From: Balanoglossus misakiensis
Taxonomy: Eukaryota > Animalia > Hemichordata
NCBI GenBank assembly: GCA_040954595.2
Contig: CM082582.2
Span: 9,415,483-9,479,482, forward strand
Direction of reading: 5' to 3'
DNA length: 64,000 nt
Within the stretch, counting starts at the first letter, position 1. The number at the start of each line of letters is the position of its first letter. The notes under the pieces were generated by a model, which made no database searches, was not told the DNA's origin, and saw only the letters and a program-made list of their open reading frames with translations. A program made the translations under genes and the position numbers. Below are positions 1 through 62,453 of this stretch, one piece after another.

Positions 1-3000
1 CAATAAAATGAAAGGGAAACTGTCACCATTCCCTGGCACTTCATTTTCCATTCACAAACTTCTCAAGTTTAAATGAATCTCCAGGTAGCAATAACCGATC
101 ACAGGCGATTTCCCGAGAGGCCCGACAGAATGCCCATTTTCCACTCCAACGTGGCGGGGATCAAACCTTTTTACCCAAAGCAGCGGTGACCGAGAAAAAA
201 CAGATAGGCCAGAAACTGTAAATTGAAACATTTAACACTATTTGGTTTTTTAATACAGCGGCCGGGAACAGAGTCACGGGCATGCTGTTGATCACTTCTT
301 TTTTTTTTTGGCGAAGAGTGAGCAGCTGAGATTGAAAGGATAACACGAGGCAAGGACAGATATGCTCTAATGAAAGGTCATATTCATAAATGACTCAACA
401 TGACTGAAATACATGAAAGTTGATGGAGGAAGGCGAGCAGACTTGACAGTAAATTGAACTAAAGTACCACTGTGGTGTACAGCATATCTTAATGTCTGGC
501 GCAACTCTTCAATTATTTATCATATGGAAGACACTACCCATATCCCTTTCCCCCGCACAACGGAGAAAATTAACACTTTTCAGACCGCAATTGACGTATA
601 AATTTAAACAAAATGGGACAGCCATCAGCTATTTTTTTTTATCTCAGTGTAGACCCTGCACTTGCTCATGGATTAATGCAGTGGTGTATTTTTAACACCT
701 GTGCAGACTTCGACACACAATGAACGTGAACATGTGTGGGGCAATATATCTTCTCGGACGTGGAGAGGGAAAAAATGATTTTTTTTTTTGACCACCCACA
801 TTCACTTTGACACACACCAGTCTGGAGTGGCGGCGTACTGGCAGGTCAGCCTGTGTAATTGCACAATGGAAATGACTGTAATACACCACCGACCAGCGAT
901 CCACGCACACAATGTCTGCTCTGGGTTGAATTTCAGAAGTCCTATTTAGCGGAGCAAAGCCAGAATAATGCCAGAATACATTTATTGGTAAAGTGATCAC
1001 ACGGGCCTCCGAGTTGGCCTTTTAACAAGAAGCCCAAAGTTTTCTGTCTCCGCTTGATTGCAACTGCACAATCCAGACAGTTATTTTTGAGATCTCATAG
1101 TGACCGCCTTTGATGAAGGGGGGGATTTTTCTTTTGGCTAATGAATGATAAGCATTATTACCAAATCATTACAATGCTGAAAATTTCTATCACAGTTGTT
1201 GTGTCAATGTGGGTCTGCATTTTCTCTGGTGGTCTACAGGCCCAGAAACAATGGAACCGGAGAGCCTGCAAAAATTAACATCTGAAATAAACCTAAGCTG
1301 CTCTCAAAAAGGAACAAAAAGTTCTTCTGTCCGGCTAAAATTAACAATCAGTTTGTCTGTGCAGTCTGCCTAATTTACAGTGTTAATAGTCTGAAATTCA
1401 ATCCTAATGCAAAAACCCTGTGTAACAGGGGACGGCGATATTACCAATCATTAGGAGAAATTTCCTCCTGACCTTTTCCATCAGAACCGGGTGTCATACT
1501 GCACTAAATATTTGCCATAAAAAAAAATCTGGCAGCTTCCTGCGCTGAATAGAAAAGGGGACTCAGAAAACCCGGATAGCCCGCAGCACTTCAGTGGTGG
1601 CAGACTCAAAAAAGTTGACTTCTGTACACAGTGAAAGGACGTGAATGATCAGACGGGCGAGGGGGAGATCGGCTAATTTGCGAGTCGGGCAAAACACAGT
1701 GTAACTTAATTCTCATAGTAAAGTTAGGGGGCAAAGCGAGTGGCAATCGCCCAGGTTGGGTGCAACGGCTGAAGGACTAACTTTAGCACACAAAGTATGT
1801 CTTGCGCTACGCACTCAATTAACATAGCCAACCATACCGCTGACCCAATGCATGTCTGATATGTAAAGAAACTCGCCGAGGTCAAAGGTTCCCCGCACGA
1901 CACCCGGTTTGAAACAGAAGATTTCCTGATGAACCAGCATGCAACAATGGTTGTCTCCTTTAGAGTTTTTTTTTTTTTACACTGATGATGATCGTCATCA
2001 TCTCTCTGACTTCCAGTCAAAAGACATCAGATCATTTCTGGCTATTGCCTCATAACACATAGTTCCAGAGAACAGACAGACATCCAGAACTTCCAGTCCT
2101 GGTTATCGTCAGTAATCACTGCATGGGCACAGGGGAAGCCAAGCAACTGGATGATAACAACCGAGTCTTGATGATATTCATAACGATTTTTTTCCCACCG
2201 AGCTGGTTTCACCAGCCTTGGAGCTCCATCAACTGTTAGCTTCCCCGGTTGGCTTCCCCCCTCCCTCCTGGACTTTTTAAGTTCAGTGAACCAACCAACC
2301 ACACTTGATTGTTCCACTCCCATCATACATCTGAACTGCCAACCATCTTGTTTGTCAACACAGCCAATACAGGTGCACACAGGTAACCATTATCATTATT
2401 GACAGATGAATTCAAGTCCGTACTTGCATTCAGTATTAAACAATGCTGAGTGTGCACATATGGGGACTGTGTTGAAAAGCTTCATGCTGGACATTTCATC
2501 ATGCTTCAGGGATTCAGACAAAAAATAAACTACACATGGTAAACCTAACAAAAATACTGTACAACAGCCTAAAGTATATACAACCAATGGGCATGTGGGC
2601 TTGACAAGAAAACTGATTATGTCCATGTTCCCCCTCCCCCCTTCCCCCAAGTAATATCAAAATTCTGAAAACACCAGCATACCACCGCAAGAGCCACAGC
2701 CAGACATCTGCTAGCCACTAAAAGCAACCAGACCCCACTAAATGGCCTTCGGTTACACCTACCACTGACTTCCAAGGCACCTATCACTTTCTCAAATATT
2801 TCTAAGCACCGACGGTGCATAATTTAGAATTATAAAAGTTAAACTTTGGGCATGCCAGGCATAGCTTCCCGCTAGATTTATGAAATTCTTCACGGGAGAT
2901 GGTCATTTCTGGTTCAAGAAGCTTATTTCCTCTCCAGTAAACAAATACTTTCTTCATCTCCATAATCTCGGCTGCCTTCAGCAATTTTGGAAATTTAAGA

Positions 3001-3664
3001 AGTAACGTCATTTCCAATTAAGGAGGGCTTCCTCCCCCTGTATTAAAATACTTGTCCTCAACACACAAAGATTCTAATTTCATTCCACAGAGCATGCTTA
3101 GTAGATAAAATGGCTCACTAGCAAGTCTTTCGGATATTTTTGCATGAACCAGCATTTTGATTTTGAATATTGTATTCCCATTCTATTTAGTGCACTGAAG
3201 ATACCCTTTTTTTAAACAATGACTTTCACAATTGCTTTGTGTTAACAACAATGGGTTTTAGACAACAGTTGGTCCCTGGACATGTTGCCACTTTAATTAG
3301 TGTTTTAGGGATGTGGATTTGTATGAAAGTTCGGGATTAGCACCTCCTTGCCAGCAACACTGACTTCACACATTCATGATCCATTTTACATGAGCTGCAG
3401 AAAGAGAAGTCTATTCTCTTCCAGGGCAGTGGCCATCAAGTACTCAGCTAAGGAGGGAGGGGGCCCTCTGTATATTTCTGTTGACTCTAAACAGTCCTGT
3501 GTTTGGTTGTCATGTGAACTAGTGGGTAAGTTTAGTTTGTATGTGGTGTTACTTTGAGTGAAAGTTAAAGGAAAGAAAATAAGTATTTCTCCTCATAGAG
3601 ACATTTACAAAGTGGAGTTGCAGAAAAGCACGCCAAGGAAAGAAAAGTAAGAGAGACATCTTAC

Positions 3665-3697
3665 CATCTCCATCTCCTGTTGTTTCCATGGTAACAT
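3665..3697 (-). CDS. Sall: 33-nt symmetric phase-1 small exon of Sall (DVTMETTGDGD)
   Basis: Minus strand: long (CT)n tract, then cttcgtcctcttgctgtcccatgcag|ATGTTACCATGGAAACAACAGGAGATGGAGATG|gtaagat. In frame, purine-rich exon body. Confidence 0.72.
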
Positions 3698-4789
3698 CTG
3701 CATGGGACAGCAAGAGGACGAAGGGAGAGAGAGAGAGAGAGCAAAGAGAGACGTGAGAATTCAGTGGAGGTGTTAAAAGTGGAAACAGTAACAGCTGTTG
3801 AGAAAAGAATTTATGAAAGTCCTGGGAAAATATTTTATGAATATGATTAGAGCATATACGGCAGCCATAAAACTAACAATAAAAGTTTGCCAAACATAGC
3901 TACCCTTTTATATAGATCTCATAAAGATATTGAAAACTTGTGACAGGGGGTCACAGATCAGAAGTTATGAGAAACACAGTGCCATAATTAAGGAAAGTAT
4001 ACATGTCAGAGAGAGAGAAAAAGTAGCCATAATTTACTTCCACCTGTGTTAACTGTTCAAAGTACGTTCCATAAAACCGGGCGAAAATTTGACTTGTCAC
4101 ATCGCTCAACTGCTGACTTTTGCTAAAGATGTAGTCACCTGTCAACAGTCATGTCGACTTTTTCATGGTGTCATAATCTGACACATATTTGACTGGTTGA
4201 AATTTTTGCGGCGAATTTTTTTTCAGTTTCATACAAAGATGGCGACACCTGTCCACGAACATTTCCCATATTTGATATCTGTACACAAACAAACTACCAC
4301 ATCAAACGACAAAAGTTCGAGACACTTATCAAGTCGAAGCCAGGCTTGCTCTAACTTAAAGGGAAGATTTCCTTCCCCCGTACGACAGAAGCTTCACTAC
4401 CACCCTGAAATATGACATGCTCCGCCAGATCAATTTTCAAAGTTTACTGACTTCTGGCTGGGGTCCCAAAGCAGAGGCCCTTGATCTGCTTTTTGCTTCT
4501 TTTTTTGTTACATAATGCCGCACTAAGATGATGTTCATTCTTTGCAAAATACCTGCTCAACACAAAGGAATTTACAGCCTTTCTCAATAATCATAAAATT
4601 TTCAAGTACTAAATCTCTATTTTTATGACAAGTAATGCACAGCTCTTTAATTTTATTTTCTATATCCTTTGAGCACCAGCAACTTGCCGCTTACAGGCCC
4701 TTAAGCCTGTCTTATCAGACTTCCTTTCCCATTGTTTCAGTCTCTCCCAATTCCAGGTGAAATCAAGACAAGAAAGACGGATGACATAC

Positions 4790-4810
4790 CTTCCATATTT
4801 GAGGTCTCAG
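4790..4810 (-). CDS. Sall: 21-nt symmetric phase-1 microexon of Sall (AETSNME)
   Basis: Minus strand: ctttcttttctttttctcag|CTGAGACCTCAAATATGGAAG|gtatgt. Near-consensus acceptor and donor, in frame, no stop. Confidence 0.72.
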
Positions 4811-5000
4811 CTGAGAAAAAGAAAAGAAAGTAATCTGATCGTGAGATTTACGCTCAGAAAAGATTTTGCGCAGAGTAAACACCACAACAGTAGTTACAAA
4901 CACCAAAAGAAATATGTCCCCTATAATAAACAGCAACAAGCCATATTTTTGATGGTTACTTTATTGCAAAGTATAACAAGTAGTCGGCTGCTGTCGTCAC

Positions 5001-5026
5001 GTCGCCATGGCAATCGCCATGGCAAC
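5001..5026. promoter_or_regulatory. Tandem overlapping RFX X-box-like motifs
   Basis: GTCGCCATGGCAATCGCCATGGCAAC: 12-bp direct repeat TCGCCATGGCAA x2, located between two microexons. Confidence 0.4.
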
Positions 5027-5210
5027 CATGAATTTATGAAAGTGAATGGATCTTGACAAGTGGCGTGTTTTGTCACGGCTTTGGGTCACTGTGTTGAGGA
5101 ATTTAGTTTTGTTGACATTTATTGCGGAGAGAAATAAATCTTTCGCAGAGGTCATAAGAAATTAAAGTGGGATAGAAAGAGAGAAAAGAATTTCAAGTTA
5201 TGACACATAC

Positions 5211-5231
5211 CTTCTTTAGGAGTCTCTACTT
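5211..5231 (-). CDS. Sall: 21-nt symmetric phase-1 microexon of Sall (EVETPKE) with tandem CAG/AAG/TAG acceptors
   Basis: Minus strand: ctttcttttctgtctgcttctttccctctcttttg-(A)n-cacag|AAGTAGAGACTCCTAAAGAAG|gtatgt. Strong donor, in frame. The pyrimidine tract is separated from the AG by an A-run, so the acceptor is atypical. Confidence 0.62.
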
Positions 5232-6475
5232 CTGTGTTTTTTTTTCAAAAGAGAGGGAAAGAAGCAGACAGAAAAGAAAGTGGTTTTAGTGTTTTGTTCA
5301 ATAAATACATAATGTCAGTTGCTAAGATGACATGTTTGCTTGTCACGAGAGAACTTTCCCTTGAGGGCCAAAGTTTGCCCTGGGACCATGGGAGGTCTAC
5401 TGAACAGTTTCAAACCAAACTGGTTCTGAAACTGGGCTGGCCGCAACAATTAAGACGTTCCATCGGAATTTCGGATAACTGCCAGTTTTACCACGTCAGA
5501 ACAATAGCTTGAGTATAGCTTTGAAACAAAAAGCAATAATTAAAAGCAAACTGTTGTATTTATTAAAGTCAGCCGGCCACCATATTGCAGCTATAAAATT
5601 CTGACACTCAAGTCGGTTTGCAAACAAAAACACTGGCAAAGTGTTTATAGCAACAGTTTCTTTTGACAAAACCTCGGCACGGTCATATTTTGATGATTCA
5701 TGTCAGGCCCTCCCTGAATTGATATACATCATTATTTATAATATAAATTACTTTTATGCCATTAAAAAGTCTTGGGAGCATTTTAACAACATCGGCACAC
5801 CACCCTTGCCTCTGACATAGTTTATTTAAAGACCTCTTTCTGTCACGCTTTTCCCATATGAAACTTTTAATAGCATTCTCGTGCGGGATAAGTTTGTGGG
5901 TTTTAAAATTTTAACACGAGTATTTTACATGCCATGAACATGAATTTGAAATGAGAGGACCGACGCCAAGACAACACCATAAGATTCACCGCAAATATTT
6001 GCCCCGAGAAGAAATTTTGGATTTGACGCTTTCTGTAGTCTAAACTTGTGGCGATTTATGGCCCGCCTGAAATAGATGACCAGCTTTTACCCATATGTTA
6101 GAAAATCTGGAGCAGAAAGTCACTAGTTCAAGAGGTGGTGCTTACTAATAAACATCATTGCTGGCAGAAAATTGTGAGCAAAAGGACGGTAGATACACCC
6201 CTACCACCCAATGAAGCCAGTTTCAACTCGGGTTTCCGATGGCGAAATTGGACCCACGTGAAGGAAATTAAGAGGAAAGTTTTAAAACTCTGATGTTCAT
6301 TTTAATTGCGATGGTTGTGTATGATTATCATGACTTGAAAACATTAATATTTTATTTTAATGAAATACTTGAGGTAGGATGTCTTTTTATAATATGGACA
6401 TCAACATCCTTGTCATCTATCTATATATGTATATCCATGATGTAGGCAAGACTATCACCTGTTAGAACATCTCAC

Positions 6476-6555
6476 CATGCATGCATTCTTTTGTGAATCA
6501 CACTCATATCATGCAAGATTTATGAGTAATGACAGGATGGCATGAGATATGATGA
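6476..6555 (-). promoter_or_regulatory. Candidate intronic splicing enhancer: 3x UGCAUG (RBFOX) and 6x YCAY (NOVA) downstream of the 18-nt microexon
   Basis: Plus-strand catgca at 6476, 6480 and 6510 (TGCATG on the sense strand). Sense sequence tcatcatatctcatgccatcctgtcattactcat at 6555-6522. Confidence 0.5.
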
Positions 6556-6576
6556 CCAACAGAGAAACTATCTTAC

Positions 6577-6594
6577 CTCCAGAATGGTCAACTC
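6577..6594 (-). CDS. Sall: 18-nt symmetric phase-1 microexon of Sall (GVDHSG)
   Basis: Minus strand: ctaat branch-like site, ~35-nt CT tract, then cttgcctgttgtaactacttgtag|GAGTTGACCATTCTGGAG|gtaagat. Length is divisible by 3 and the exon is open in the exon-1 frame. Confidence 0.72.
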
Positions 6595-6722
6595 CTACAA
6601 GTAGTTACAACAGGCAAGAGAGAAAGAGAGAGAAAGAGAAAGAGAGAGAAATATGGTTATTAGAATTATTTACTTTTCAAGGATAAAATCAACATTGTTA
6701 GTACATGTAATCAGATTCTTGC

Positions 6723-6934
6723 TTAACCCTTTTAACGCTGGTCAACTTGTCATCATCTTTCGAAAAATAAATCCTCACAACTTTTCCACACATTTTTTTC
6801 TCAAATTTTGATTAAGAACTGAAGATTCTGTCCACTTGGTCCAAAATAAAGTAAAAATTTAGAGAAAAATGGGTGAAAATGTGAAAATGTTGCACCACAT
6901 TTTGACAGAGAAAATGTAACGTTCAAAGGGTTAA
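6723..6934. mobile_element. ~204-bp non-autonomous DNA transposon (MITE, piggyBac-like TTAA/CCC termini)
   Basis: TTAA at 6723-6726 and 6931-6934 (target-site duplication). Imperfect terminal inverted repeats CCCTTTTAACGCT and CCCTTTGAACGTT (11/13 match). AT-rich non-coding interior. Confidence 0.7.
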
Positions 6935-7203
6935 GTAGGATTTTTGTGCGCTGGAAGCCACACCAAGATCTAAAGCCCCAGCATTTTTTTTACAGAACCC
7001 CTTCAAGAGATTTACAAAAAACAGAAGATTTTTACACAAAGAGAGAGCAGGGTGAATAGTATAAAAGATGTTAAAATTATAATTAGGTCTTTTGTTCGGG
7101 CAAGGTTCTACAAGTATTAGAAGGACCAAGCAATCAGAGGCTTTGATTAGTTTGAGGTTAATATGTTTCCAGTTCCACTGGAAGGTGTTTTTTCCCATCT
7201 TAC

Positions 7204-7284
7204 TTTTCATAAGCGTAAATTACAGATAGTGAAACAAATAAAAGGCAAAGCGCAGAGTGAAGAAGTCAGCCAGGCGCATCCCTA
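7204..7284 (-). other. Candidate 81-nt exon with stops in all frames, ending in ATG AAA A| (phase 1)
   Basis: Minus strand cactaac branch consensus, T/CT tract, ctccag|TAGGGATG...TTATGAAAA|gtaagat. Very strong acceptor and moderate donor. Confidence 0.35.
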
Positions 7285-7350
7285 CTGGAGAGAGAGAGAG
7301 AAAAAGCATTCGAGAAAAAAAAAGTGTCTGTTAGTGAGTTAGTTGCTTAC

Positions 7351-7372
7351 CAAAGGTTTGATTAGGCAGCCT
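7351..7372 (-). other. Candidate 22-nt frame-breaking exon, or 3' end of an alternative non-coding first exon
   Basis: Minus strand ctttttgttcttttcag|AGGCTGCCTAATCAAACCTTTG|gtaagc. Strong splice sites, but in phase 1 it reads GAG GCT GCC TAA (stop). Confidence 0.4.
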
Positions 7373-10300
7373 CTGAAAAGAACAAAAAGCCAATTTTTCA
7401 AACACACTGTGATTTGAACGCTAAAGACTTTCTTTTTAATCTGTGAATTAAAGAGTGCGGCGATCTCAGCACACGTGGCTGCTTGCATGTGTAGTAGTAA
7501 GTACTAGTAGCAGTAGTAGTTGTTGTGAGAGGGAGCCACGGAAGGAAGGAAGCCAGCGGTTCATCATGACCACAGGGCTTGTGAGTGATCACCGCCAGTG
7601 ATGGAGGGTGAAGCCAAGAGTCTTGTTTATTAATCACACAAAGAAATGGAGCCGTTGGATAAACTATAACTACCTCGTAAAGTTTTCAGCTCCGCTAATG
7701 ACCAGCCCCTCAGGCCAGGCTGTACATTTTCCTAATTATAAGTCAAAAATGTATGCTCCCCTTTCCCTTCATCTTTTTAATATCGACAGATAGGCGTCGT
7801 TAGAATCACGACCTTCCCCCGGACCAGGATTTCTCCGCGTCTCAGCTCAATCGCCCGGGTTTAATTTATATACGTAAAGCCCTGAAGACCCCCCCCCCCC
7901 CAATACACAAATGAAAACATGTTATTACCGATATGGAGATATGCACGTCCTGTAAACTGCCGAGGCAATTTAGAATCTGCAGTCGAGTTTAAACCCATCA
8001 GCTAAAAGATGGCATGAAAATGTTACTAGAGGGGATTTGCCTGCTAACTTGCATCACGGGCAATAGACGGACGCTGAGAAAGATCCATCAAATAGTTTGT
8101 CTTTTCTCTCTCTCCCCTATCTAAATTGGCCCCAGGCATCAACTTGGAAATTAAAATCTTAAAAAGCTTGACATTTTTGTCAATTGATGGGCTTATCCGT
8201 CATCAGCGTTGGCTCGCACAATCACGAGAAGAAAAGATATGTCCCGACTGAATTGATTTCTCAGACACGCATTTTTGCATATCCAATATGGAATTCCACG
8301 GCAGGCCAGTTCTGTCTCTAAACCCATTTTTTTTCATCCTATTTACTCGCAGTTTTGATTGACATTTCACACAAAAATCATGCACTTTCACATCCTGTTT
8401 TTCAACCAAGAACCTCTTGATCTTTTCTTTTTTAAACTGACCTTCCTTTACAAGTTATACAACCATTACATTCTGTGAAGCTCTGAAAATGAAAGCTAAA
8501 TTCATAACCCTTCTTTCTACTATTTATCATTTTTCTATAAAAAGCCAACCATTATCAGAAATTTTTCTCTTGAAAGTGCAACTCCCATTTTGCTTTCTTT
8601 CTTTCTTTTTGAAACATAGTCCCCTTTCAGTAAGTTTCTTCCCTGGTGTAGAAGGAACTTAATATTCTGAGATAATATTTGAACCCTTACATGACTATCG
8701 TGTTCTTTTTTTTTTCTTTTTTCCAAAGACTTGAAACGGCAGATATCAGCTCCCCAGACCAACAAGAGGATATGTTTCCAGTGCCCCTATAGGCCTGTAA
8801 AAACATCCATCTAGCATACTGAGGGGACAGTCGATGCCTGTTCCTGCTTGCAATACACTCCCACTCTCTCTCAAAAGAGAGATTACTAATGAATCATTTA
8901 TACACACTGCATTACTATGGAATCAATTTTCATATTTCTGCCGGTGTGTGCCGCGTACGACTTGGCGCTTTCTGCCTCTTAAGTGCTCTCTATCCATGAA
9001 TTACCCCTGAAACATCAGTCATCCAACAAATGCCTGTTCGCTCACTCTCCTGTCTCTCTGCCCCCCCCCCCCCCCCTCCAAAATAATGCAAGCTTGCTAG
9101 GAGGCGCAGACAGAACAAGCAACGGGCCATCAGAAGCACAAACGTCCGGAAGATGCAGATGATTGCGGAGACGCACAAAAAACCTACTGTTTTAAATCAC
9201 TGGTAGTTGACTCGAAACCACACCGCAATTACACAATCTTTTGGAAAGGCAACTCGGGGAGCTAAACAGCCCGACAGCCACTCCAGCCCAGCTGTAATTA
9301 CACCCGTCACAGACCAGACAGATTTATTTGTTTTGCGAATTCAAAATTACACTTATTAATAGCAATCACGGCTTATTGGGATAAAAAAACAGCTTTTTAA
9401 AAGCACGGCCGCAATCAGAGATAGTGCTCTTATTTATGGCGAGATCAGTAATTCGGGCCTGCCAACTTTCCCAGGATGTGCAATTTTATAGCTATTACAC
9501 ATGATGATAACACTGACCCATTTTATACATCTTTTATCCATCACTGTGAAAAATGGGTGGTGATGCTTGCCGCTCCGGCATTACGAGGGCTGTCTGGGAC
9601 GTGCCCACAGTCCCTGTCGTACATCAAAGTCCTGGGAATTGGCAGCCATTATTAAATTCGTACCAGAGGAAAAAAATTCCCATCTAACAGCCAGCATTGT
9701 GATAATCCCCCCTTCAACACAACAACTGATATGATATGACAACGTTACCGATATCCCACTACTAGCACATGAGACACTTCTGATCTTTGACCCCTGACCC
9801 CGGAGTACAGCTGATACCAGTCACAATAGATACCAACTTGTCAAATGATAAGGAATCATTGATAAATATATTTAGTGTAAACAAACGCTGACCATCTCTC
9901 AAAATTTTTTGGATGCTGATGGGTATTATATTTCAGCGCTAGCAAAGGTTATTCTTTACAAAGGTTCTGCCGACCTGAAATTTCCCCAGCCTCCTCATCA
10001 TCATATCCTCTCATATCTCTCTGTGTGCAATTGGATGGCTACCCTCAATAGTCACAACTTTTCTTTGCAGTCTATTTGTCCTCATACAAAAGTTTTGCAC
10101 GAAAACAAGGAGAACTAAAATTTCATGACTTTATGATTTGACAAACAAAACTTTTCCGGAACCGAGTTTTGGAAACCTAGCAAAAACAAATTTTGAGCCA
10201 TACCTTGTGCAGGATTCACATACGCCACAATCACTCCTGTGTATTTCACTCTCTACCGGACAGCACGTATGTCATGAGACAGACGAGAGCACCCCAAAAA

Positions 10301-13300
10301 AAAACATTCACGGGCTGGGAACCGTGCCAAGATTCCGACTTTTTTTATTTGCAGAATCGCACGGCATTAATTTCACTTTGTATTGACGACTGTAATTATT
10401 ACCTGCACACACTACCTTGTTGACATTCCAACGAGAGTGTGCAACCCAAGCCCCTGTCTCCCATGAATATTCATGTCGCCAACAAAACACAACATCGACA
10501 AGACGGGGGTGGGTGTGTATCGACAAGTGAGTCAGGTGGCTAAGCAGAGAGACTGAGCCAAAAGCAAGGAGAGAGACGCGAGTCACCAGAGGTGATGTAC
10601 ACCTCCAGGTCAAGTGTATACTCCCAGGACCCTACTCGACAAAACGGGAAAACCACCTCCACATTACAGGTGTCCGCAGCTTTTTTTCCCCCAGATGTTT
10701 AGAGCACAGTGTTTAATTTGATGCTGTTACACACCATTAAACAGCTTCCTTTGTGCGCGCCACAATAGCCCGCATGAAATGCCTTCAAAAGTCACAAAAT
10801 TGGGCCTAAATTAAGTTATAAAATTATGCTTGGCTCTCAGGAGGATAGTCTGGAGACCACACAACCACCTTTCCCAAGTGAAGCTGGCCTGCCTGGGTGG
10901 TTGCATGACTTTCATAAAAGTACTATGAAGAAAATTGCTGTCATGTGACCGGGCGAGTGCAACGGATCAACAGAGATGTGTTATGACACCCCCCTTGTTG
11001 AGCAGCTCAGACAGGGAGAAAAATGGCCCCACTATCAATCTTGAAAGTTGTACAACAATTCTGCGCTAGATGCTGTCACAGGCAACATAATATGAACCAT
11101 TGTGGGAAAGTAGCTGAGCAAACAAGATGGAGTTCCCCCTGACACGATAGCTTCTCAAGCACTACCTGTAGCCTGTCTGCTACACATGAATGTGGTTTTG
11201 ATGGACTCGACTCGCACCTTGTTTCAAACTTGTCCACACCCAAAACAACAGCCAATTTGGTATAACCTCACAGTGATTGGATTAAACCATACCTACAGCA
11301 GGGGTGGGCAATTTGAAGAGGGGAATGTGCAGCTTATCAGTTGGACAACATGTACATGTACTTCATATTAGTAACATTTCAAATATTGGGCCAACGCCAA
11401 CATCTCCTACCCGTCACATTTTCAATTACATTACTGACAGAATGCCAAGTTAAGGAGTCTAACTTTTAAAAAGAAATAATTTTTCATCGATTAGAAATGA
11501 TTAGATGTTCTTAATGCACAAAAATAATGTTTGTATAGCTTTAAATGGTGATATTTTTATTAATTCTTTATGTCAAGCATAATTTGCGGATTCAGGAGTG
11601 TGCTAAGAACGACAGCAGACAACTGGGGACAGCAACTAAAAGCTGTGATATCCTCATACAGTTTCACTACAACACTTGAAAGTTTCTCACAGAAATTTAA
11701 CACATTAATCGTCAGCATTTCCATATGCACGACACAGAACCCTACCATCTGTCAAAATAAAAACACATTGGCAAATCACAAGAGAACGTGGAATTATTAT
11801 AATTAAAAAGACACGTACGTCTCTCAGAAGTTTATATAAACAATGGCCTCATGAAATTCGTGTTTTGGAATGTTAACATGTGCAACATGCGATCAGGCTT
11901 TGGGTATTATACTGATACCCTTGTGACTTGAAAGATGCAGAACTGCCATTTAGCACCGCCCCGAGATTATTTTTCCCCGACGTCTTTTGTTTCCATCAGC
12001 TTTTTAAAAAAAAATTCACAACTGTGAATAGGATTAGGTAACAAGCGGTTGAATAGTGAAGGTGTGATAGCCTACACAGCTATGTTCAATAATTCCAACA
12101 AAATCAATTACAGCCCGAAAATCTGATGCTGAACTTCATTTTTTCCAAACCAATTTCAGAGAAATGTACCTTCATTAGTTGTTATTTGCATATGTAAAGT
12201 TGAATTCACGGGAAAAAAGAAGAAAACACAGAAAATACTGAAACTCGCACCAAATAAAATATATATGGCTGGAAAACCTTTGCTCATTCATTAAGATGAA
12301 GGTTTTCACACCATGCAAAACCGAAGCAATCAATTTCAATCATAGGCTTGAATTCTAAATAGAAGCAGATGGATGGTGTAGACATACTTGGAAGCAAGAA
12401 TCGGCTTGCCGAGCCCAGAGGTTAAGTCATCATTTTGTCAGTTAAGGCTCCTTTGATCTCCGAGGATTGGCTGGGGTACAATAACACCTGAACTTACCCT
12501 ACCTCTCTATAAATAACAACACATTTTTTTTTTCTGTTTCCTTCTTTCTTTTCCTGTTTCTGCGAACCACAAGACAACGAGGTCTCCCCCACCTTGATGC
12601 TACAGTAACACCCTATAAACTACACAGACAGCCAAATCAGTAGAGTTCAAAGATTACCATCACAAGACTGTTGCTGCATATTCTTAGAGGCTGTTACGCA
12701 GACTTCATGAAAGTAAAAGTGAAGTGTGATGTTTGAATAGGTATTCTTAAAATGCAATTGTTTTCTTCAGGAAAATAATTTCAAATTTTCTGGCTTGCCT
12801 AACATAAAAGAAACATTAGACACTACCTGGCTGTTAGACAGCCACATTTTTTGACTATCTTGAATAATTGTGCATTTACAGCGTTCCAAAATTCCAATAT
12901 ACACAGTTGATAAAAAGTGATCTACTCAGCACAGTGGTTGATTTCTATCCAATAAATGCCACTGCGCCCAGTTGAGAAAAGTGATCCGCTATGGCCTGTA
13001 TTTGATTTGACTCGCCTTCCACTGAAAGGTGTTTTATATATTAGGACCCGAGTACTGTTTCGGTATTGCCTTGAAACAATGAAATCTGTGATGTCAATTT
13101 CTGTCAGCGACGCTATTTGGAAGGACGTCGCGATGAAATTATATCCCATCTCGACTAATTGGGAGAAAATAATAATGCTGAGAGAGTCCGCTCTAAAGTG
13201 AACAGTGTGTGTTCACTTGATAGGTAAAGATGAAATTTGTGTCTTCTCCTGGCTTGATTTGTTTCTGCTTCATCGAACTCTGTTGGTCGCCGTTTGACAG

Positions 13301-16300
13301 AATTATACAGTAACTATACCTTTGATTGGCAGGTGAATGGTTTGTGAAGGATAGAGATTGCCTTCGCCTAAACACAGCTCTGCTTTTTATCGCGCTGAAA
13401 TCCTTCAATGGTAAGCTCTCCTCGTGATTGGTCGACTGTAATACCACCGTGATCTAATTGTGGCCAATCAAAAACGTTTCCTGCTTCTAGAGCCAGGTGG
13501 CGGTGTGTGCTGGTGGTTTGACAAGCCCTTTTTTTTTCTTCTCAAATGTGACACAGGGGTCAATGCACCACCCTATAAAGGGGAGCCCTCCATTCCCCAC
13601 TGTGTACTCTGCATCTCAAATTCCAAAACAAGGCATGAACTGTACATCAACTATGCATCCCAACGTCCCCCTGTTTGCAGTAAGAATTCCAAACTCCGGG
13701 ACCTTAAAAAACGTAAAATAGTGCGGGATTCCGACCCGCAATCGTTTAAATTCTGCCGTGCATTACAAGCTACAAGCCCAACATCTGCTGAAAAATTCTA
13801 GGCATTCCAACACTGACCACTTTTTGTCGTACACAAAACCTGTCTTTATAATAATGCTAGCTTCCCATTTCCCTCCGTCATTCTTGTTCACTCAGCCAGC
13901 AACAATTTTACCAGTCATCTATCCATCACAAACATTTCAAAAGCCAAAATTTGTTTTGTTGAACCGGGGAGGTGGTCGTGGTTATTTTGTTTCATTTTTC
14001 CTCCAGGGTGTGGCCTGCAGCCTATTATGAGTGTGCTGGTTTTTTTCTCCCCCTCAAAGGTGTGGTGACGGTAGCCAAAGACGCAAGATTAAAATTCCCT
14101 CTTTTCAAATTTATGTGCTTTATTCATGTGTCAATGAATACTGCATGTACGGCAGAGACAAAAGACTGCTACTTTGGGCCAAGTATGCAATCTTTCACTC
14201 AGCCATGAAAAGAAAATGTTTTTTAACCGCTTTCAAGAAAACGAACTCTGAATGCAGCGGGGGTCTCTCTCCTTTCACATTACAAAGTATTGCATATCTG
14301 TTCATCATTTTCAATATAATAAACACGGGTACTGATTTAACTAATAAAGTCAATTACTCGCATCGATCGCATACATACGAAAAGAGTTGAGTGGGGATAA
14401 GACAACACTTGGCAGTCTCTTGGCTTGGGAAATTGATACCTTCTTCGGTGCCAATGTAGTAAAACGTCATTAGCGACGGCAGCACACCTTTGCTAATGAC
14501 AGGTGTCTGCATGATGACATTGCATTTGCCCTCATCATTCTTGGGAGATATTGGCCGGCGCAAAAAAAAAAAAAAAGAAGAAAAGAAGCGCTTGACGAAT
14601 TGGATGGCGAAAGATACAGATCAACAGACGGGCCAGCTAGTGGCACTAATGCACTGCCACGATTTCAGCACTTCGATACAGGGATCTAACATTACAAGTC
14701 TGGGAGATCACCGCCAGTTGGAGAGAGAGAGAGAGACGGGGGGAGGGTTGGAAGGGGATGATCGGTGATTTATGAGCCGAGATGAACTCGGACGACATCT
14801 TACATATTCACTTAAACCTCCCCACTGCAGAAATGAAAATGGTAAAATCCACTAAAATAGATGTCAGATCGACTGCTTTGCTTCAGTACTGGCGATAGCG
14901 ATCTCGGTCGTCCACCCAACCATTACCCAAATGACTGTTAATTACACCATTTTATCCAGCTTTCTCCATCTTTCCTGTATGATTTGCCTTGTTTGTCGAG
15001 GAGTTGTGGGAGGGGGGGGGGGTTCTAAGATCAATACTGGACAATTTCTTTTGAGTGAATTGGTCACACACTCATTTTAAAATACCATCCTCCCCAGTTT
15101 GACATTTGTCAACTTGGGATAAGAAGTCAAGACTTCAAATTAAGGGATTAAGCATGCGTGAACGTTTGTGACGGGTTGCTTCCGCTTGCAGACAGCGCGT
15201 TAACAAGTCCCGGTGATGCAACAGTTGGATAAATATGTGCGTATGTGAGAGCACCCAGCCACAAAAAGTATGTAATTATTATCCAAGGAAGGTTTTTTTT
15301 GTCCGCTCCGCTTTTGTGCGCGCCCACCCCGTGGGTCGTCAGCATCCAAACCCTTTTTTCCTTGACTGGAGGCCTTATAAACTGCTCAAACTTGTTTACC
15401 GAACTTGTAACAATTAACTTTCAAGCCTGCACGCATCTACATATGACTGTGAAATTCACTTTCAATAGAAGGGATTACACAATCATCCCCACGTCTGCCC
15501 TTCAAACAGCAGAAGCAAAACCTGGGGTCCTGGTTTCTCTTTTTTTATGGCCCAGACTCTGCCGTGAAAAGCAGCCAGATAAATCACCCCATCCATCTGT
15601 TTACTCGCAGTGTTATTTTATGCAGACAATCCTTCAAACGGAGGGACAAAGGGTGCCACGGAAGGAAAAAGTCCTTTCAGTAATTTTCTGGTGCCAAAGT
15701 ACACTTTAAGTTTATCTACATATTTTTATTGCATACGCGCTGGTAAATGCACGGTCTTTTCAGCTGTACCGGAAGAGCGCATAATGCTAAATAATGGGCA
15801 CAAAGCAACATATTGTTATCCCCCAATACCTGCATAAGTCTCTTTTGCTGATTTCCTTTTAGTCAAGTTTTAATAAAGCCACTCGGGCTCCAAAGAAAAG
15901 AATTTCAACTACAGAGATGGCAGTGTGTAAGAGAGTGGCGAGCTGTAGGGTATTAAGATTTCTCATCTGTTCGGGGGTACGACCCCTGGGGTCGGTGGAA
16001 AAACACACGCGGTTCACACCAAAAAAACACTTTCCCTGGTTCATCTTTTGTCTTGTCATCAAAGACCGACCTGTATCAGCTTTCACGGCCAAAGCTGTTG
16101 ATGAAAAATTATATAATCTAACCCAGGAGACGTCGGCGGCGGCAACAACGCGTGGTGAGCCCTGAACAGGAAGCGCGAGAAAAGAGACAGGCATGTCTAT
16201 GTCTGAGAGAAGTGACGCAATCCGAGACAAGTTTTATCATTGTGATTTTCCGTCTCTATATAAACTGCAGCTCCCCACAAAATTTCACACTGCATACTGT

Positions 16301-16907
16301 TTCATTTAGTGATTGTGCCGTAAATTCCACAGATTACTCTGCTTAATTACCCTGAAATCTAGCTTCTCCACTGAATATTTCATGGCCACGCTGCACATAC
16401 TTATGCTAATTTCCGAATCGTCAAGTACTTTCCATCCTACCATTTCAAAAAAATAAAATTAATACTCTCCCGCTGAAACAAACTGACAAACTACACCATG
16501 TGAAGAAAGACTGATGACATTTGGCAATTTTCAGGTTGTTAGACGGGCAGAATTTGGATTTGTAGCTAAGATCACACACATCAGTCAAATTGACAATCTG
16601 CTTCTCGGCACCAACTTGTTTAATGTGATTGTCCTTTTTGGCTGATCTGCCATGAATTGAAAACCATATATTTTTGTCAATCTAAACGCTGGGTTCATCT
16701 CATCAAATAAGTCCGCTTGATGGCTTGTGCCATCTTTCATATTCAGTACTGTGACAATCAAATATTACAATTTTTTAAACAATCTCTGAAATGCATATTA
16801 AGTTATGTATAGTCTTTGTCCGTTTGATTTTCAGCTCAACTCAAATTTATGTTCTGCAGACAAAAATCACGGTTTCCAGACTACAATGTACCTACACTGG
16901 TGACTGG

Positions 16908-16968
16908 GTGTGTGTGTGTGTGCACGTGTGTTTGAACATGCATGCATGCGTGTGTCTATGTGTGTGTT
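16908..16968. repeat. Degenerate (TG)n/RY microsatellite
   Basis: gtgtgtgtgtgtgtgcacgtgtg...gcatgcatgcgtgtgtctatgtgtgtg. Confidence 0.8.
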
Positions 16969-19900
16969 GCAACCCAGCCGTGGTTCTCACAAGTCAGACA
17001 GATTATCATCATTACTACCAACACGTGTCTCACCATACCAAACGTAATCTCCCCCTTGTGTGAAACCACTGCACAGGGTGCACAGGCCACTTGCAAAGGC
17101 AACAATACCACAGCCAGCCTACATGAACCAGAAATTGAACGGCCTGACCTTACACTGTGACGTGCACATCCCAACCGTGTGCCACTGATTCCATTTTTTT
17201 TTTCCTTCTCTAGCTCTCTCTAGATCTCTCTTCTACCCATGAAAAACAATCAACCTGCCGCATGACATTGTTTAGGTTTTGGATCACACTCAGCACCGAC
17301 CGGAATAAGATTACACTGTTCTCCTGTCTGTACAAACTGTCAATCAAATTGTAACCAGCTCCCAACAGACTTGTCGCAAAACATTCCTTCATGCTAGAAT
17401 CAAATGAAAATTGAAAGCCACACGCATCTGACGGGGAAAAAAAAGAAATACAACAACCCAGCGCAGTGAACATAATTTCCATCATCATAACTTCCCATCC
17501 AATTGACTCAATCATTTCCTAACATCCATTTACTTCTAATTACAATTCCATTATTAATCCGTAGACTTCCCGGAGCAATAATTGACCCCATGTGCAAACT
17601 AATCCCGCAAAAATGTTACATGTGTGTTATCAGTGTCAAAGGTTATAAATCAGGGGCCAAACCAATCATATGAGGGAATTGAATACATCTGCCTCCAGTC
17701 GTTCCCTCATTGAGCAAATCTCCTGGTGATGATGCCCCTCCCCTTTGCACTATAACACAAGTGCAGGAGACAATTCTCTCAGCCAACAACTCACCTTGTG
17801 CGCATGAAATCAGTGCTCACACTGCCACTGTCAATGTGTGGGCCAACCAGTGTCTAGAGTTTCATCACTAATATCAGATTTTCATTTTCTATTTACAGTT
17901 CACACCCACTTTGGATAAATAAATAAAGACATATTTCTTTCTCTTTATGAACTTCTGAGTCAGAGTTCTCTTTCACATCATGATAACGGTGCACTGCTTC
18001 TACTCACTGGTTTAATCCATCTTAAATAACGGCACTTTCACACATTTTTTCCCCCTTTTCAACTTTGAGTGACAAGAAAGTGGTTTTGACAAAAATTACT
18101 CCAACAAATTAACTGCCATTTTGCTTTCTTGTGAGCCAACATTATTTTTAGTTTCCCAATAAATCAGAGTGTGTGACTGACTGAAAGTGCCATCATGGAC
18201 GATGTAACATAATGGCGGTATTTGTATTCACTTAAGTCAAGAAATACGGGCAATGTAAGGCAACTCCGATGTTGTGATCCCCTGAGCTCCAAACACTGTA
18301 TGTTGATCTAGACATCCATCTTGGAAATTTACAGGATTCCGACAAGACACCAGCCTGCCCTCTGCCTTGACTCTCCCTCCCACATCTTTCAGCCGTGACA
18401 ACTTGACCAAAATAAAGCGCGGCCGTAAACCAGGCTCGACCGGGTGAGGGGAGAACAGAAGTTTTAAAGCAAATTCCACCGTAGCACCGCGGGCCCCGGC
18501 GAAATGAATCAAATCAACAGCTGAGGACAATCAACAAATCATCACACAAGTACTCTTCCCAGGTAGCATCAGGAACCTTAACAAAGTTTCCCGGGAGAGG
18601 TCGCGACCCCTGATCAGCCCACAGCAGGGGGGAGATAACACAGCGGAATGGATGGGGATGGCAGAGCGGAGAGATTTATCCTCCTCATCATCATCAGTGA
18701 TAGTGAAAGATGAAAAGCAAGTAACAGCCCGCAGCAGGAAACTGAAATTATCAACTTCCTATTTATATTATCCATAATGGCCTATGCTATCACAATAGAC
18801 GGACAGGAAATCACGGCAAAAATGAGAGAAAATCTTTATGCGTCTGGTTAATTATGTCAGACATGTACAGGCTGAGTCATGTGTCAAGTGTTCGTATATC
18901 AAAACTTGACAGCACATTAAATATCATTACAAAGTACATGTGTGCCAGCATTATCTCGCTCACATGAACGACTGGCTGGGGCTGTAATCTTTGATGGTTT
19001 CAATATGAAACAACTCAAAATTCTCACACTTCTCGGCTCCCAGATAACCAATCCCCCCCCCCCCTTCCAAAAAAAAAAAAATTCCCATGTATATGACTTG
19101 GCTCGTCCACACACTGAAACCACTGATGTGTGGCCATTAGGAAACTATACACTCGCATGAATCATTCCAAGATGATGAAAGTCCTTGTCAGATTTTTTGA
19201 TACAATGGGTTCTTTCTGTTTTTCTTTGGGGGGTCCCAAATGACACCATGATTTGTGACATGCTGAATTATATGAAGCAGAGAAAGACGTCTAACCAAGT
19301 CCCTTTCTCTTCCCAGATTTGTCTCGGACCATATTTCATCGAGAAGGGCAGATCAAAAAACCCCTTTTGTTTATATACCCCCGTCCTGCACAATCTGTGA
19401 CAGCCACGGCAGATTTAATGAGCTCATGAAAAATAGAGCAGCTTGACCATCTTACACGGTCTGCCGAGCAAATTAATGCAATTTTGCGTTTATTATCTAT
19501 GTATGATATCTTAGCCGGGATAATCTAGCCCAGTGACCAGGTCTATCGGCTGGGGCTTATCTGTGATATATAAAACGTCATCAACTGCCTTTCCTCCCAT
19601 GGTCAGCCAACTGCCCCTGCTCTTGGTGCTTAGTCACATGTGAAATGTTAGGTCGTCATGGCTCCTGTAGGATGCTGCCCTGGCCTCCCTAAGGCAGGCG
19701 ATGTTCACCCAGGCCTTAAGAGCCATGCCGATAGACTACAAATTCGACAACAGGAGGATATCCTATGTAAACCTCTCATTTAAATTTTCCCGACGCTGAT
19801 TGCGTCTGATGCGATTGGCTCTCACCCGTCGATGGGGTGGTGTTTTTTTTATCTAGACGTCGGATAAAAAAGCTGGCACATACATGCAGTGACAGCATGC

Positions 19901-22900
19901 AAAACATGGCCCTCCACCATGGACATATGCCAGCCCAAACGAAAAAATATAATCTTTTGTGCATAAACTGGTGCCTTCAACGAACTCAGCAACCCGCACT
20001 TTATCATCGCAGCACACAAAAACAAATTAAGGAATACACGAGATGAATAAATTCCAGGACATAATCTAACTGCAGCTCTATCAACTCACAACTGAAATAT
20101 GAACACATCACATGAATCTTTTTGATCTAGCGCGGGGCTGTTGAGTGATGCCCGAGTTTCCTTTTAACATGTAGACACAGAGAATATTAACTATATGATA
20201 TGGAAGCTATTTGTTATCATAGACAATGGGGAGATGCGCATTTTTTACCTGAGATGGTTATCAGCCGACGACGAATGACCATGACCAACAACGGCCAAAT
20301 GGGCTCCCCTACTTCACAAGGCGCTGTCCTCAAACACGTCCCAGCACATCATAACTGTGCAATCATATACACATAGATGTATTTATGCGGAGATGTATCA
20401 GCTGTCGCATACCCGTCATACGTTGCAACTGGTCACTTTAAACGCAAAAAGTCAGGGAGGCAGCCCCATAACGACTGAGATTTATTGGCCAAACAGATGT
20501 GGGACTTCTATTTTTCTCTCTCTCCCACCCAGATGAATTTTTTTTTTTAAAACAGTGGAAGCCGTAACTACACTCCGCTCTTTTTTCAGACATGACATGC
20601 AGATGACGTTAGCCATGCAAATAATGGAAGGGGGGATCGTTTATCATTTATGGATATCTCACTCTTGTTGTGATTAGCGGACAAGATGCCGCCCTGAATA
20701 ATTAATCGCAGTAACCTCATCTCTTTCCACTAATGATAATTCAGCTTTGTCCACAAATCTCGGTTCTTTGTCGCTGACAGTTCAGCTCCTTGATGCTGTA
20801 TCGGACGAGTTTATCTCCAGACACACAACCATATATGGTCATCCGTGGATGAAACTGGACACTGTTGGCTGCCTGGCAACCCATCATCCTCGCGCCTGCT
20901 TCATCCCTCTCATACCAATGCATCCTCAAGTTTTTTTCTTCCTAATCACCCAAATGCCCACCCCGTTTCTTCCCATTGTTAAAAGGACTCCCCCCACTCC
21001 AGACTTATTTATTATGGGACCGAGAAACAAACTATCAAATAACATTGTGTAACAGAGGACCCACTGATAATGTCTGCCATTGCCACACATTTCTCTCTCA
21101 TATGGAATGCAATGTCTGTTTTCCCGCCCACGTACATTACTATGACAGTCAATAAAGAATGCACTGGCCATCATATTTTTAACGTGGACTCCTGACTCGG
21201 CCGGTAGCCCTCATTTCAAACCCAAGTCCATCCACACACGCTGTGTCCTTCACGATTAAAAAGCCCTGTTTCATTTCGTCCTCATCTCTGGTCCCCTTTA
21301 CCCTTTTCCATTCAGCGTGATTTACTGCAGCGGGTCCCGCGCTCCTGAATATTTGGGATAAAAATACTGAGCCTGTTTACATTTTGTTGGCCTGACTGAA
21401 GTCCAGTAAATTTCCTGAGTTTTCGTCCTAAATTTTATTTTATTCTTTTCGGGTTTTCCCCAGCTTGACGGAAACCAACACATTTGCAGAAAAGAAAGAT
21501 TTTCAAAACAGTTCCAAATAATCTTTATTTTCAGATGGGAGCAAAATATTCTTTTGTCACAAAAACAGCCCAACATAACCAGATTTATCCTCCATCAACA
21601 TTCGCAGATTTTTATCGCACAAATCATGGATTTTTCCCCTTCTTAGCAACATATCCCACAAAATTAACATTTATAAAACTTTAAGATGCCTGACCTAGTT
21701 GAGACTGAACAGCCAACCAAAATCAGGACCTTGTTGATCTGTCCAAAGTATTTCCGTCTGATTTTAATCATCGCCCTAAATCATTTATTATCATATATGA
21801 CAGTCGGTTATCAGTTTGGACTATAATGATGATAGTGTTATTATATTAATGATGGTCACTCCTGGTACGGAGCTGGCCGTCCATATTTATAAGTCAACCA
21901 TCAGAGCGTGGGGAAAACAATCAGCATTTTTTTCCCTCACAAGTTCAGATGAAATGATAAAAACAACCGGATTTGACCCGCTGCATCCCGTCAAAATGTG
22001 TCCAACGCCAGAAATTAATTCCATTTTTTCAGCCACATTCCACATGTGGCCGTGACTTCTTCATGTCGTCATTCGGCTCAGCCAGCACCTTCCGACTCAA
22101 AGTTGGCGATAAATTACAAGTAATTGCCTATAGATCTGGCTCAGCCCTGGCTGGAATTCGGTTTATCTTTATCGAACCAGTATTTCAGGGCACAGTTTTG
22201 ATAATAAATTTACGTCTACCCGGCGAAATATTGAGGTCACTCGACTCAAAATGGCTGCCTCATACTTGTCTTTCCCTGACAGTAAAAGCCAACATGAGAT
22301 GGAACATCTTGCCTATTTTTTCATCACGAAATTCTAAATGAACTTCATAAACCCTTAAAAATTCAACCACAGACTAAAATTCTTTCTTTCTGACGATGTA
22401 TGAAATGTCTCAAACTTCTTTTCTCTCTCCACAACTGGCTGTCTGGCTTCAAGCAACAATCAAAAGTTGTCATGATTTGTGGTCAACTAAAATACATCCA
22501 CAACACAATAGTACTTTAGCCCACTTCAGTCTGACATCGCTACGGTCAAATCTTTGATAAGATCCTGCATGGAACAGTGAAATTCCAGGCCACAAACAAC
22601 TCTGAACCTTGGCTAAGTGACTCCAGAATCTGAAACATAGTCTCTTGGTTGCACTCAAGTTTTAAGGGTTTCACAGAAGAAAACTGCAATTTCACAAAGC
22701 GGAATCAAACTATATCAGATTTCACCATTTCCATAAATTGTCAAAATGAAGTTAGACAGACTGAAGCTATCAACTTATTTTTTTGTCGTTTCTGGTCCAT
22801 ACTCTCCTACTATCACCACCATCATCTTCAGCAACAATGTTTGCTCCGCTCTCATCATTTTAAACCCGAGATACATCTGATTTATGACGACAATTATTTG

Positions 22901-34900: not shown

Positions 34901-35096
34901 TTTGCTACTCTGTCTCTAATCACCCCGACAACGTGCTGTACACAGTTTCACAGGGGGAAACTAGTGGAAAAGTTTTGAAAGTGAAATCTGGCCACTTTCT
35001 GAAAGAGTTATTGAGGCAGTTATGGTCTTTCACAAAAGACGCTACTGTTAAGAGTCACCCGCACTACGCACGCAACGCGTCACACGCACACACGGG

Positions 35097-35119
35097 CGCG
35101 TTCGCGTTCGCGTTCGCGT
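35097..35119. repeat. (CGCGTT)n short tandem repeat in the CpG-rich start of intron 1
   Basis: cgcgttcgcgttcgcgttcgcgt, about 4 units. Confidence 0.8.
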
Positions 35120-35645
35120 CAACACTCTGAAACTTCCCACACCGCTCTCCGTCCGCATTCCGTAACACTAGTCCAAGTTCTCGGGCGTCATAAAGTTGCG
35201 AAGACGCCGGCAATAAGTCGTGGTTTACGGAATCCGGGAGTTGGGGACGTGGAAATCGACAAACGGCCCCGTTAGAAAGTAGAAACTCGAGACGTAACAA
35301 CATAAACAATTGTTGCAAAGTGGAGCGCGCGCGCCGACTGAAATTGACATGAGCCACATCCAAGGAATTTCACAACTTCCAACAGTTGTCATTAGAGAAA
35401 GTGTCACGGTGGCAAACGTCGCTTCCTGCCGTCTCATCAATACTGGCTGTCAATCCGGGTCCCCACTGCCCACCACGTCTCGGCGAATCCCAGTCAGAAA
35501 ATAAAGCTCGCAGCCGAATTTGTATAAACATTTTATCAGATGTCAAAATACCGATAGGTAGAACTACAGAAGCCCCGGCGTAAGAAAGGCCACCGGTTAC
35601 GAAGTCTCAACGCCAAGAAAACGTGCCCCTGCGCTTAGTACTCAC

Positions 35646-35718
35646 CATTTTCCAGCAATGTGGATGTGTCTTGGTCGCTCCCTAGGTGCTGCGGTTTGGC
35701 CTGCTTTCGGCGCGACAT
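35646..35718 (-). CDS. Sall: First coding exon of a spalt-like (Sal/SALL) zinc-finger transcription factor; NuRD-binding N-terminal motif
   Basis: Minus strand ccagccATG (good Kozak context) encodes MSRRKQAKPQHLGSDQDTSTLLEN, matching SALL N-termini (SALL3 MSRRKQAKPQHLKSD, SALL1 MSRRKQAKPQHFQSD). It fits less well to BCL11 (MSRRKQGKP/GNP), FOG (MSRRKQSNP) or ZNF423/521 (MSRRKQAKPRS). 73 coding nt are followed by a consensus donor AATG|GTGAGT in phase 1, as in vertebrate SALL exon 1. Confidence 0.93.
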
Positions 35719-35751
35719 GGCTGGAAACAACAGCAGCGGGGAAATGATTAG
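35719..35751 (-). other. 3' splice-acceptor-like sequence ending 2 nt before the Sall ATG
   Basis: Minus strand ttCTAATcatttccccgctgctgttgtttcCAG|ccATG: branch-like CTAAT about 27 nt upstream, pyrimidine tract, CAG. Confidence 0.5.
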
Positions 35752-62357: not shown

Positions 62358-62363
62358 ATCATC

Positions 62364-62453
<90 letters not shown>
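62358..62453. repeat. (ATC)32 microsatellite with one ACC interruption
   Basis: Direct reading. It explains the poly-Ile and poly-Ser ORFs at 62199 and 62212. Confidence 0.97.

Follow-up and report, generated by a model that had tools for sequence, protein, structure and literature searches.

The locus raises the question of whether a Sall gene of the hemichordate Balanoglossus misakiensis carries, in the long intron behind its NuRD-motif exon, a row of very short frame-preserving exons, and of what their inclusion would do to the protein. A sequence-only reading of the window (the whole stretch of 64,000 nucleotides that was analysed, contig CM082582.2 of assembly GCA_040954595.2, positions 9,415,483 to 9,479,482) had placed four such exons on the minus strand, all symmetric and free of stop codons, in a gene recognised as Sall. 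Both the exons, with their coordinates, and the identity of the gene are borne out here, while several of the properties attached to them have to be revised.

The gene was identified through the RRKQxxP NuRD motif of Sall/Spalt, which is encoded from 35718 on and whose consensus was taken from the available parts of two papers (PMC3020727; PMC11602157). A query with the exon bearing this motif gave three matches among eight candidates, all of them acorn worm Sall proteins, from Ptychodera flava (100% identity across the aligned part), Saccoglossus kowalevskii and Glandiceps talaboti. BCL11 or another gene with RRKQxxP was considered as well and is ruled out by this match. The matching P. flava RefSeq protein has, in parts encoded outside the window, a C2HC finger at residues 95-115, a Q-rich region around residue 260 and four Sal-box-like motifs. 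Since a C2HC finger, a Q-rich region and paired C2H2 fingers with a Sal-box are given as Sall features in the accessible text of PMC8699250, the gene belongs to the Sall/Spalt family. A structure search with the first finger returned weak generic zinc-finger matches only, and Rfam had no match in the window. The features of the locus are the following.

35646..35720, minus strand: NuRD-motif exon of Sall, with RRKQxxP; ATG at 35718, acceptor at 35720, donor at 35646
6595..35645, minus strand: intron between the NuRD-motif exon and microexon A, 29,051 nt
6577..6594, minus strand: microexon A, 18 nt, 6 residues; donor GTAAGA; acceptor with an AG-free zone of 76 nt, a UC-rich pyrimidine run of 36 nt, UGC at -22 and CTAAC at -107
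5211..5231, minus strand: microexon B, 21 nt, 7 residues, with a single Thr-Pro site; donor GTATGT; acceptor with an AG-free zone of 88 nt, UGC at -35 and an A-run ahead of the AG
4790..4810, minus strand: microexon C, 21 nt, 7 residues; donor GTATGT; ordinary acceptor with an AG-free zone of 22 nt and no near UGC
3665..3697, minus strand: exon D, 33 nt, 11 residues, with a conserved METTGDG motif and an in-frame ATG at 3689 in the context ACCATGG; donor GTAAGA; acceptor with an AG-free zone of 95 nt, a long UC repeat and UGC at -15 and -5
1..3664, minus strand: intron 3' of exon D, at least 3,664 nt, running past the edge of the window

The NuRD-motif exon had been taken for exon 1, and this does not always hold, since in many transcript models it is internal. 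Its own acceptor lies at 35720, the Ptychodera (RefSeq X1) and Saccoglossus models splice an upstream coding exon onto it, and RefSeq isoform X18 skips it; with 75 nt and phase 1 at both ends it can itself be skipped as a cassette when transcription starts at upstream promoters. The upstream and alternative first exons of RefSeq (X1, X3 and X13 types) were found in the window neither by tblastn nor by peptide search, and probably lie outside it. At 1.5 kb upstream from the acceptor of the NuRD exon, on the minus strand, a short ATG-opened segment (37260-37287) ends in a phase-1 donor, CAG|GTGAAT; this possible proximal first exon is absent from the isoforms listed. Elsewhere, a trinucleotide repeat at about 62300-62460, whose translation in two frames gives long runs of Ile or Ser, is an ordinary microsatellite.

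Each of the four short exons is preceded by YAG and ends in G followed by GTAAGA or GTATGT, all four lengths are multiples of three, and none contains a stop in the phase-1 frame set by the donor at 35646. The introns between them measure 1,345 nt (A-B), 400 nt (B-C) and 1,092 nt (C-D), and the large zinc-finger exon, which had no match within the window, is placed beyond position 1. A pyrimidine tract running up to the YAG had been described for every exon; in B, a run of A separates the tract from the AG, which is why a position-weight scan missed this exon. Some authors set the limit for microexons at 51 nt, and exon D falls inside it. By the criterion of at most 30 nt found in the available text of PMC12992808, A, B and C are microexons (18, 21 and 21 nt) and D, with 33 nt, is not. 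An internal YAG in D, at 3676 on the minus strand, could give a 12-nt in-frame short form, absent from the RefSeq isoforms listed. A candidate unannotated exon pair was also observed 0.6 kb ahead of microexon A (7204-7372, minus strand): a 22-nt segment with the donor GTAAGC at 7350, an intron of 66 nt containing a UC tract and, twice, a CTAAC branch point, then acceptors at 7284 and 7281 and the donor GTAAGA at 7203. Used as cassettes these two segments would bring stops into the frame, so that they would act either as poison exons or as 5' exons for an internal promoter; they are absent from the 15 isoforms listed.

How readily such exons might appear by chance was assessed with a filter asking for a pyrimidine-rich YAG, an exon of 3-51 nt ending in G, and a strong donor. 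On the entire minus strand only the loci A-D passed it (five rows, one of them the internal AG within D), while the plus strand gave five scattered loci, one of which was in frame and stop-free. When the intron was block-shuffled 300 times, no replicate gave four loci (mean 0.16, maximum 2), a result that supports the exons and does not prove them, the thresholds having been fixed after the exons had been seen. No fifth in-frame microexon passed the filter, and the remaining long AG-free sites are without a suitable donor.

Independent support comes from the public gene models of P. flava. Joining the exons of the window rebuilds all nine of the listed isoforms that carry the NuRD motif, including the residues at the junctions, an agreement that by itself would place the window in P. 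flava or a very close relative. The sole mismatch to RefSeq is residue 29 of the NuRD isoform, in exon A (6581-6583, minus strand), where P. flava has Pro and the window Ser; the aligned residue of Saccoglossus is Ser too, and the window allele may be the older state. That the four exons are real is practically certain.

They are alternative frame-preserving cassettes, used in combinations in the gene models. The P. flava cluster comprises 18 RefSeq isoforms, and the counts given here cover 15 of them (X10, X15 and X17 left out). The earlier proposal of 16 on/off combinations adding 0-31 residues stands as regards combinatorial use and full skipping, both of which are seen, but only eight of the 16 combinations occur among these 15 isoforms, all of them XP models and thus predictions: ABCD and ABC three times each, BCD, AB and none twice each, and BC, D and A once each. 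A is included in 9 isoforms, B in 11, C in 9 and D in 6, and all nine isoforms with C also have B. The NuRD motif is missing from 6 of the 15, five of which include A and B. Automatic RefSeq models presumably rest on RNA-seq. Among 55 candidates, no shorter protein or transcript fragment bearing the insert was found.

Conservation in related Sall proteins, which had been put forward as a check, is found for part of the array: A and D are homologous in Saccoglossus, B and C not detectably so. Saccoglossus isoform X1 is set apart from X2 and a GenBank entry by an insert of 32 residues at the same junction, which aligns to the 31-residue insert of Ptychodera with a score of 58 (shuffle mean -3.9; reached by 0 of 10,000 shuffles). 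Saccoglossus shares eight of the 11 residues of D (a score attained by 0 of 10,000 shuffles) and, of the six residues of A, three with the RefSeq allele (122 of 10,000 shuffles) and four with that of the window; for B+C, 4,786 of 10,000 shuffles did as well, and no homology to the Saccoglossus insert was detectable. The identity is not exceptional for this protein pair. The whole insert has 14 of 31 residues identical, against a median of 16 in 31 for the other non-finger parts, and 25% of 267 non-finger windows equal the 8/11 of D. Length and acidity are similar in the two species (31 residues and a net charge of -9 in Ptychodera, 32 and -7 in Saccoglossus); kept while the sequence of B+C is not, they fit a spacer or charge element. 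Ptychodera and Saccoglossus represent two enteropneust families.

Beyond these genera, the single Glandiceps model has the skipped form only, and there is no such insert in three sea star, four sea urchin, two scallop and seven scorpion proteins or in the listed chiton, spider and snake Sall proteins, although absence from gene models is weak evidence because microexons are easily missed. By this comparison of proteins the array is apparently specific to enteropneusts. Three side observations were made on these models. The newt SALL1 isoform X4 model (P0024) carries at this exon junction about 32 extra residues unrelated to the acorn worm insert, which suggests that exons have been gained in this intron repeatedly. 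NuRD-less alternative N-termini joined at the same junction are widespread in bilaterian models (P0114-P0118, P0121, P0075 and P0080, from sea star, sea urchin, scorpion, chiton and spider), and some may be artefacts. The C-terminus of the Glandiceps model (P0004) is extended by a long series of different zinc fingers and by an acidic tail, possibly an annotation fusion of two genes.

As for what inclusion changes in the protein, the spliced exons had been described as an acidic, disordered-type linker, and the insert is indeed acidic, is devoid of aromatic residues and counts as disorder-like by the charge-hydropathy boundary; Pfam has no match in it. Counted between the Met of the NuRD motif and the first Cys in the C2HC finger, the spacing grows between the skipped form and full inclusion from 51 to 82 residues in Ptychodera and from 50 to 82 in Saccoglossus. 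The skipped-form spacing is 50-51 in five ambulacrarian proteins. In a redundant set, rich in rodent SALL3, of 73 non-hemichordate proteins with motif and finger, it is 38-52 in 67 and 69-76 in six, the newt SALL1 model among the latter, and none reaches 82. The net charge of the linker passes from -12 to -21 in Ptychodera and from -11 to -18 in Saccoglossus. The expected change in distance to the first zinc finger applies to the C2HC finger, which is the one next to the linker; the first C2H2 pair moves only from 454 to 485 residues from the motif, a change so small that an effect of the insert on the DNA-to-NuRD reach is unlikely.

The acceptors offer a hint as to the regulation of these exons. 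The code read by the eMIC consists of long AG-free zones, UGC, UCUC tracts and CUAAY, according to the available part of 10.1101/2021.02.24.432780. A and D match these features well, B partly and C in none of them, which fits the dependence of C on B. An AG-free zone of at least 76 nt occurs at 10 of 933 YAG sites of the intron, a background of random YAG sites and not of constitutive exons, and A, B and D are three of these ten; UCUC/CUCU words number 18 at A and 20 at D. The code is not specific, however, since the NuRD exon acceptor shares several of its features (an AG-free zone of 138 nt, UGC and CTAAT) and UGC lies near the AG at 365 of the 933 background sites. Judged from these signals, the exons are probably under neural eMIC control. 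The same source, in its available part, describes microexon targets as almost wholly rewired between phyla.

The reading that we prefer, although we give it only about an even chance, is that the cassettes are switched by the eMIC in neurons and tune NuRD recruitment through a longer and more acidic linker. The Srrm2/3/4 (eMIC) microexon programme would turn the exons on in neurons, as the code in the acceptors of A, B and D suggests, and C would be carried along when B is included. The included exons would make the disordered linker that follows directly on the basic NuRD motif longer and more acidic. This motif binds an acidic pocket of RBBP4 via Arg3, Arg4 and Lys5, as described in the accessible text of PMC3020727, and the acid added beside Arg-Arg-Lys may compete with that pocket or repel it, while the insert may also loosen the coupling to the C2HC finger. 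The outcome would be a graded, weaker repressor. Against tuning by charge counts the fact that the linker is acidic already without the insert (-12 in Ptychodera), and the six other Sall proteins with spacings of 69-76 residues indicate that long linkers are tolerated. The conservation of D also counts against tuning, in that it suits a peptide motif or a start codon as well as a spacer.

The first alternative, which we regard as possible though unlikely, is a peptide-specific role, mainly of the METTGDG of D together with exon A, as a binding, phosphorylation or condensate element, the spacing being incidental. It draws on the shuffle results for D and A and on an S/T-x-x-D/E site at the same place of D in both species (insert positions 26 and 27), a CK2-type consensus. 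Precedents exist in the acidic exon of MEF2D and the microexon of CPEB4 (PMC10006080; PMC11711090; both available in part). The identity reached by D is nevertheless attained by a quarter of the non-finger windows, B+C have no detectable homology, and the insert gave no Pfam match.

The array might also be largely neutral, that is, made up of in-frame exons recruited from a long intron and tolerated in a disordered linker at low inclusion, without function. The lack of conservation in the sequence of B+C would agree with this, as would the skipped form being the only one in the single Glandiceps model and in the echinoderm models, and so would the location in exon A of the amino-acid difference between the window and RefSeq. 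Yet two enteropneust families have A and D in common, as well as the frame and the total length (31 against 32 residues), and all four exons are stop-free multiples of three with strong splice signals. Near-neutral tolerance suits B and C, less so A and D, and as an account of the whole array it is improbable.

About equally improbable is the proposal that exon D mainly provides an alternative start, yielding a Sall protein without the NuRD motif and thereby a switch from repressor to non-repressor. Its ATG at 3689 lies in ACCATGG, while the ATG of the NuRD exon has T at +4; the Met is conserved, with full identity for seven residues from it on, and an older Saccoglossus model (P0006) begins at this Met. 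SALL isoforms without NuRD are known, as reported in the available part of PMC8699250. Against it, D opens with an out-of-frame ATG 8 nt ahead of this one, NuRD-less forms already arise by skipping and from other first exons (6 of 15 isoforms), and A-C are left unexplained. Finally, that splice-like sequence has arisen here by chance and that the RefSeq isoforms are annotation noise, as the automatic nature of XP models might suggest, is extremely improbable given homologous inserts at one junction in two independently annotated species, the failure of all 300 shuffles to give the pattern and the exact match of the junction residues.

The preferred reading of eMIC-switched tuning can be extended, tentatively and with a low probability of being correct as a whole, to an N-terminal rheostat of five cassettes, conserved across enteropneust families, in which the skippable NuRD exon and the four symmetric acidic exons would let neurons set Sall anywhere between a strong NuRD-dependent repressor and a form that is weak or free of NuRD, with D serving as a conserved alternative start as well. 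If true, splicing would act here as a dial for corepressor recruitment, something for which no counterpart has been described among vertebrate SALL genes. An array of four exons in a single-copy developmental repressor offers in any case a compact test of whether splicing grades NuRD recruitment, and its presence in two acorn worm genera, with none seen in echinoderm Sall models, offers a test of its time of origin in deuterostomes.

The earlier reading knew of no such array described for Sall. Among the matches listed, no paper on it was found in the microexon, Sall, spalt and hemichordate literature, nor any on hemichordate microexons, though subscription papers, the microexon papers of 2014 and 2019 and supplementary tables might list the exons. 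RefSeq, however, already holds the P. flava isoforms and the orthologous Saccoglossus insert, so that the exons are present, uncommented, in automatic annotation, and the class of system is already known. A fly microexon paper naming spalt was set aside, spalt being there a driver line, and Sall, Srrm and microexons are absent from the main text of a hemichordate single-cell paper (PMC13554239).

Among the closest known systems are the neural microexons of the eMIC (Srrm2/3/4), which in the available parts of their descriptions are likewise very short frame-preserving cassettes (10.1101/2021.02.24.432780; PMC12992808). The long AG-free zone, the UC-rich tract and the UGC recur before A, B and D. 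The Sall array differs in that four exons stand in a row in a developmental transcription factor, in that D exceeds the 30-nt limit of PMC12992808 and in that C lacks the code. The acidic beta-domain exon of MEF2D (PMC10006080, available in part) is similar as a short acidic alternative peptide that tunes the activity and assembly of a transcription factor; it is a single exon that boosts activation in muscle, whereas Sall has four cassettes beside a corepressor motif, and no sequence relation is claimed. Neuronal microexon 4 of CPEB4 (PMC11711090, available in part) is comparable as a microexon that regulates gene expression via contacts with another part of its protein, but there a single 24-nt exon of an RNA-binding protein affects the reversibility of condensates. 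A further close system is that of the vertebrate SALL1 and SALL2 isoforms with and without the NuRD exon, in which, as far as the available text of PMC8699250 goes, the choice of N-terminus alters NuRD recruitment; echinoderm, spider and snake Sall models also vary at the same junction. In the vertebrate genes this is an all-or-none change of the first exon, while hemichordate Sall adds graded in-frame cassettes and has the NuRD exon itself as a symmetric cassette.
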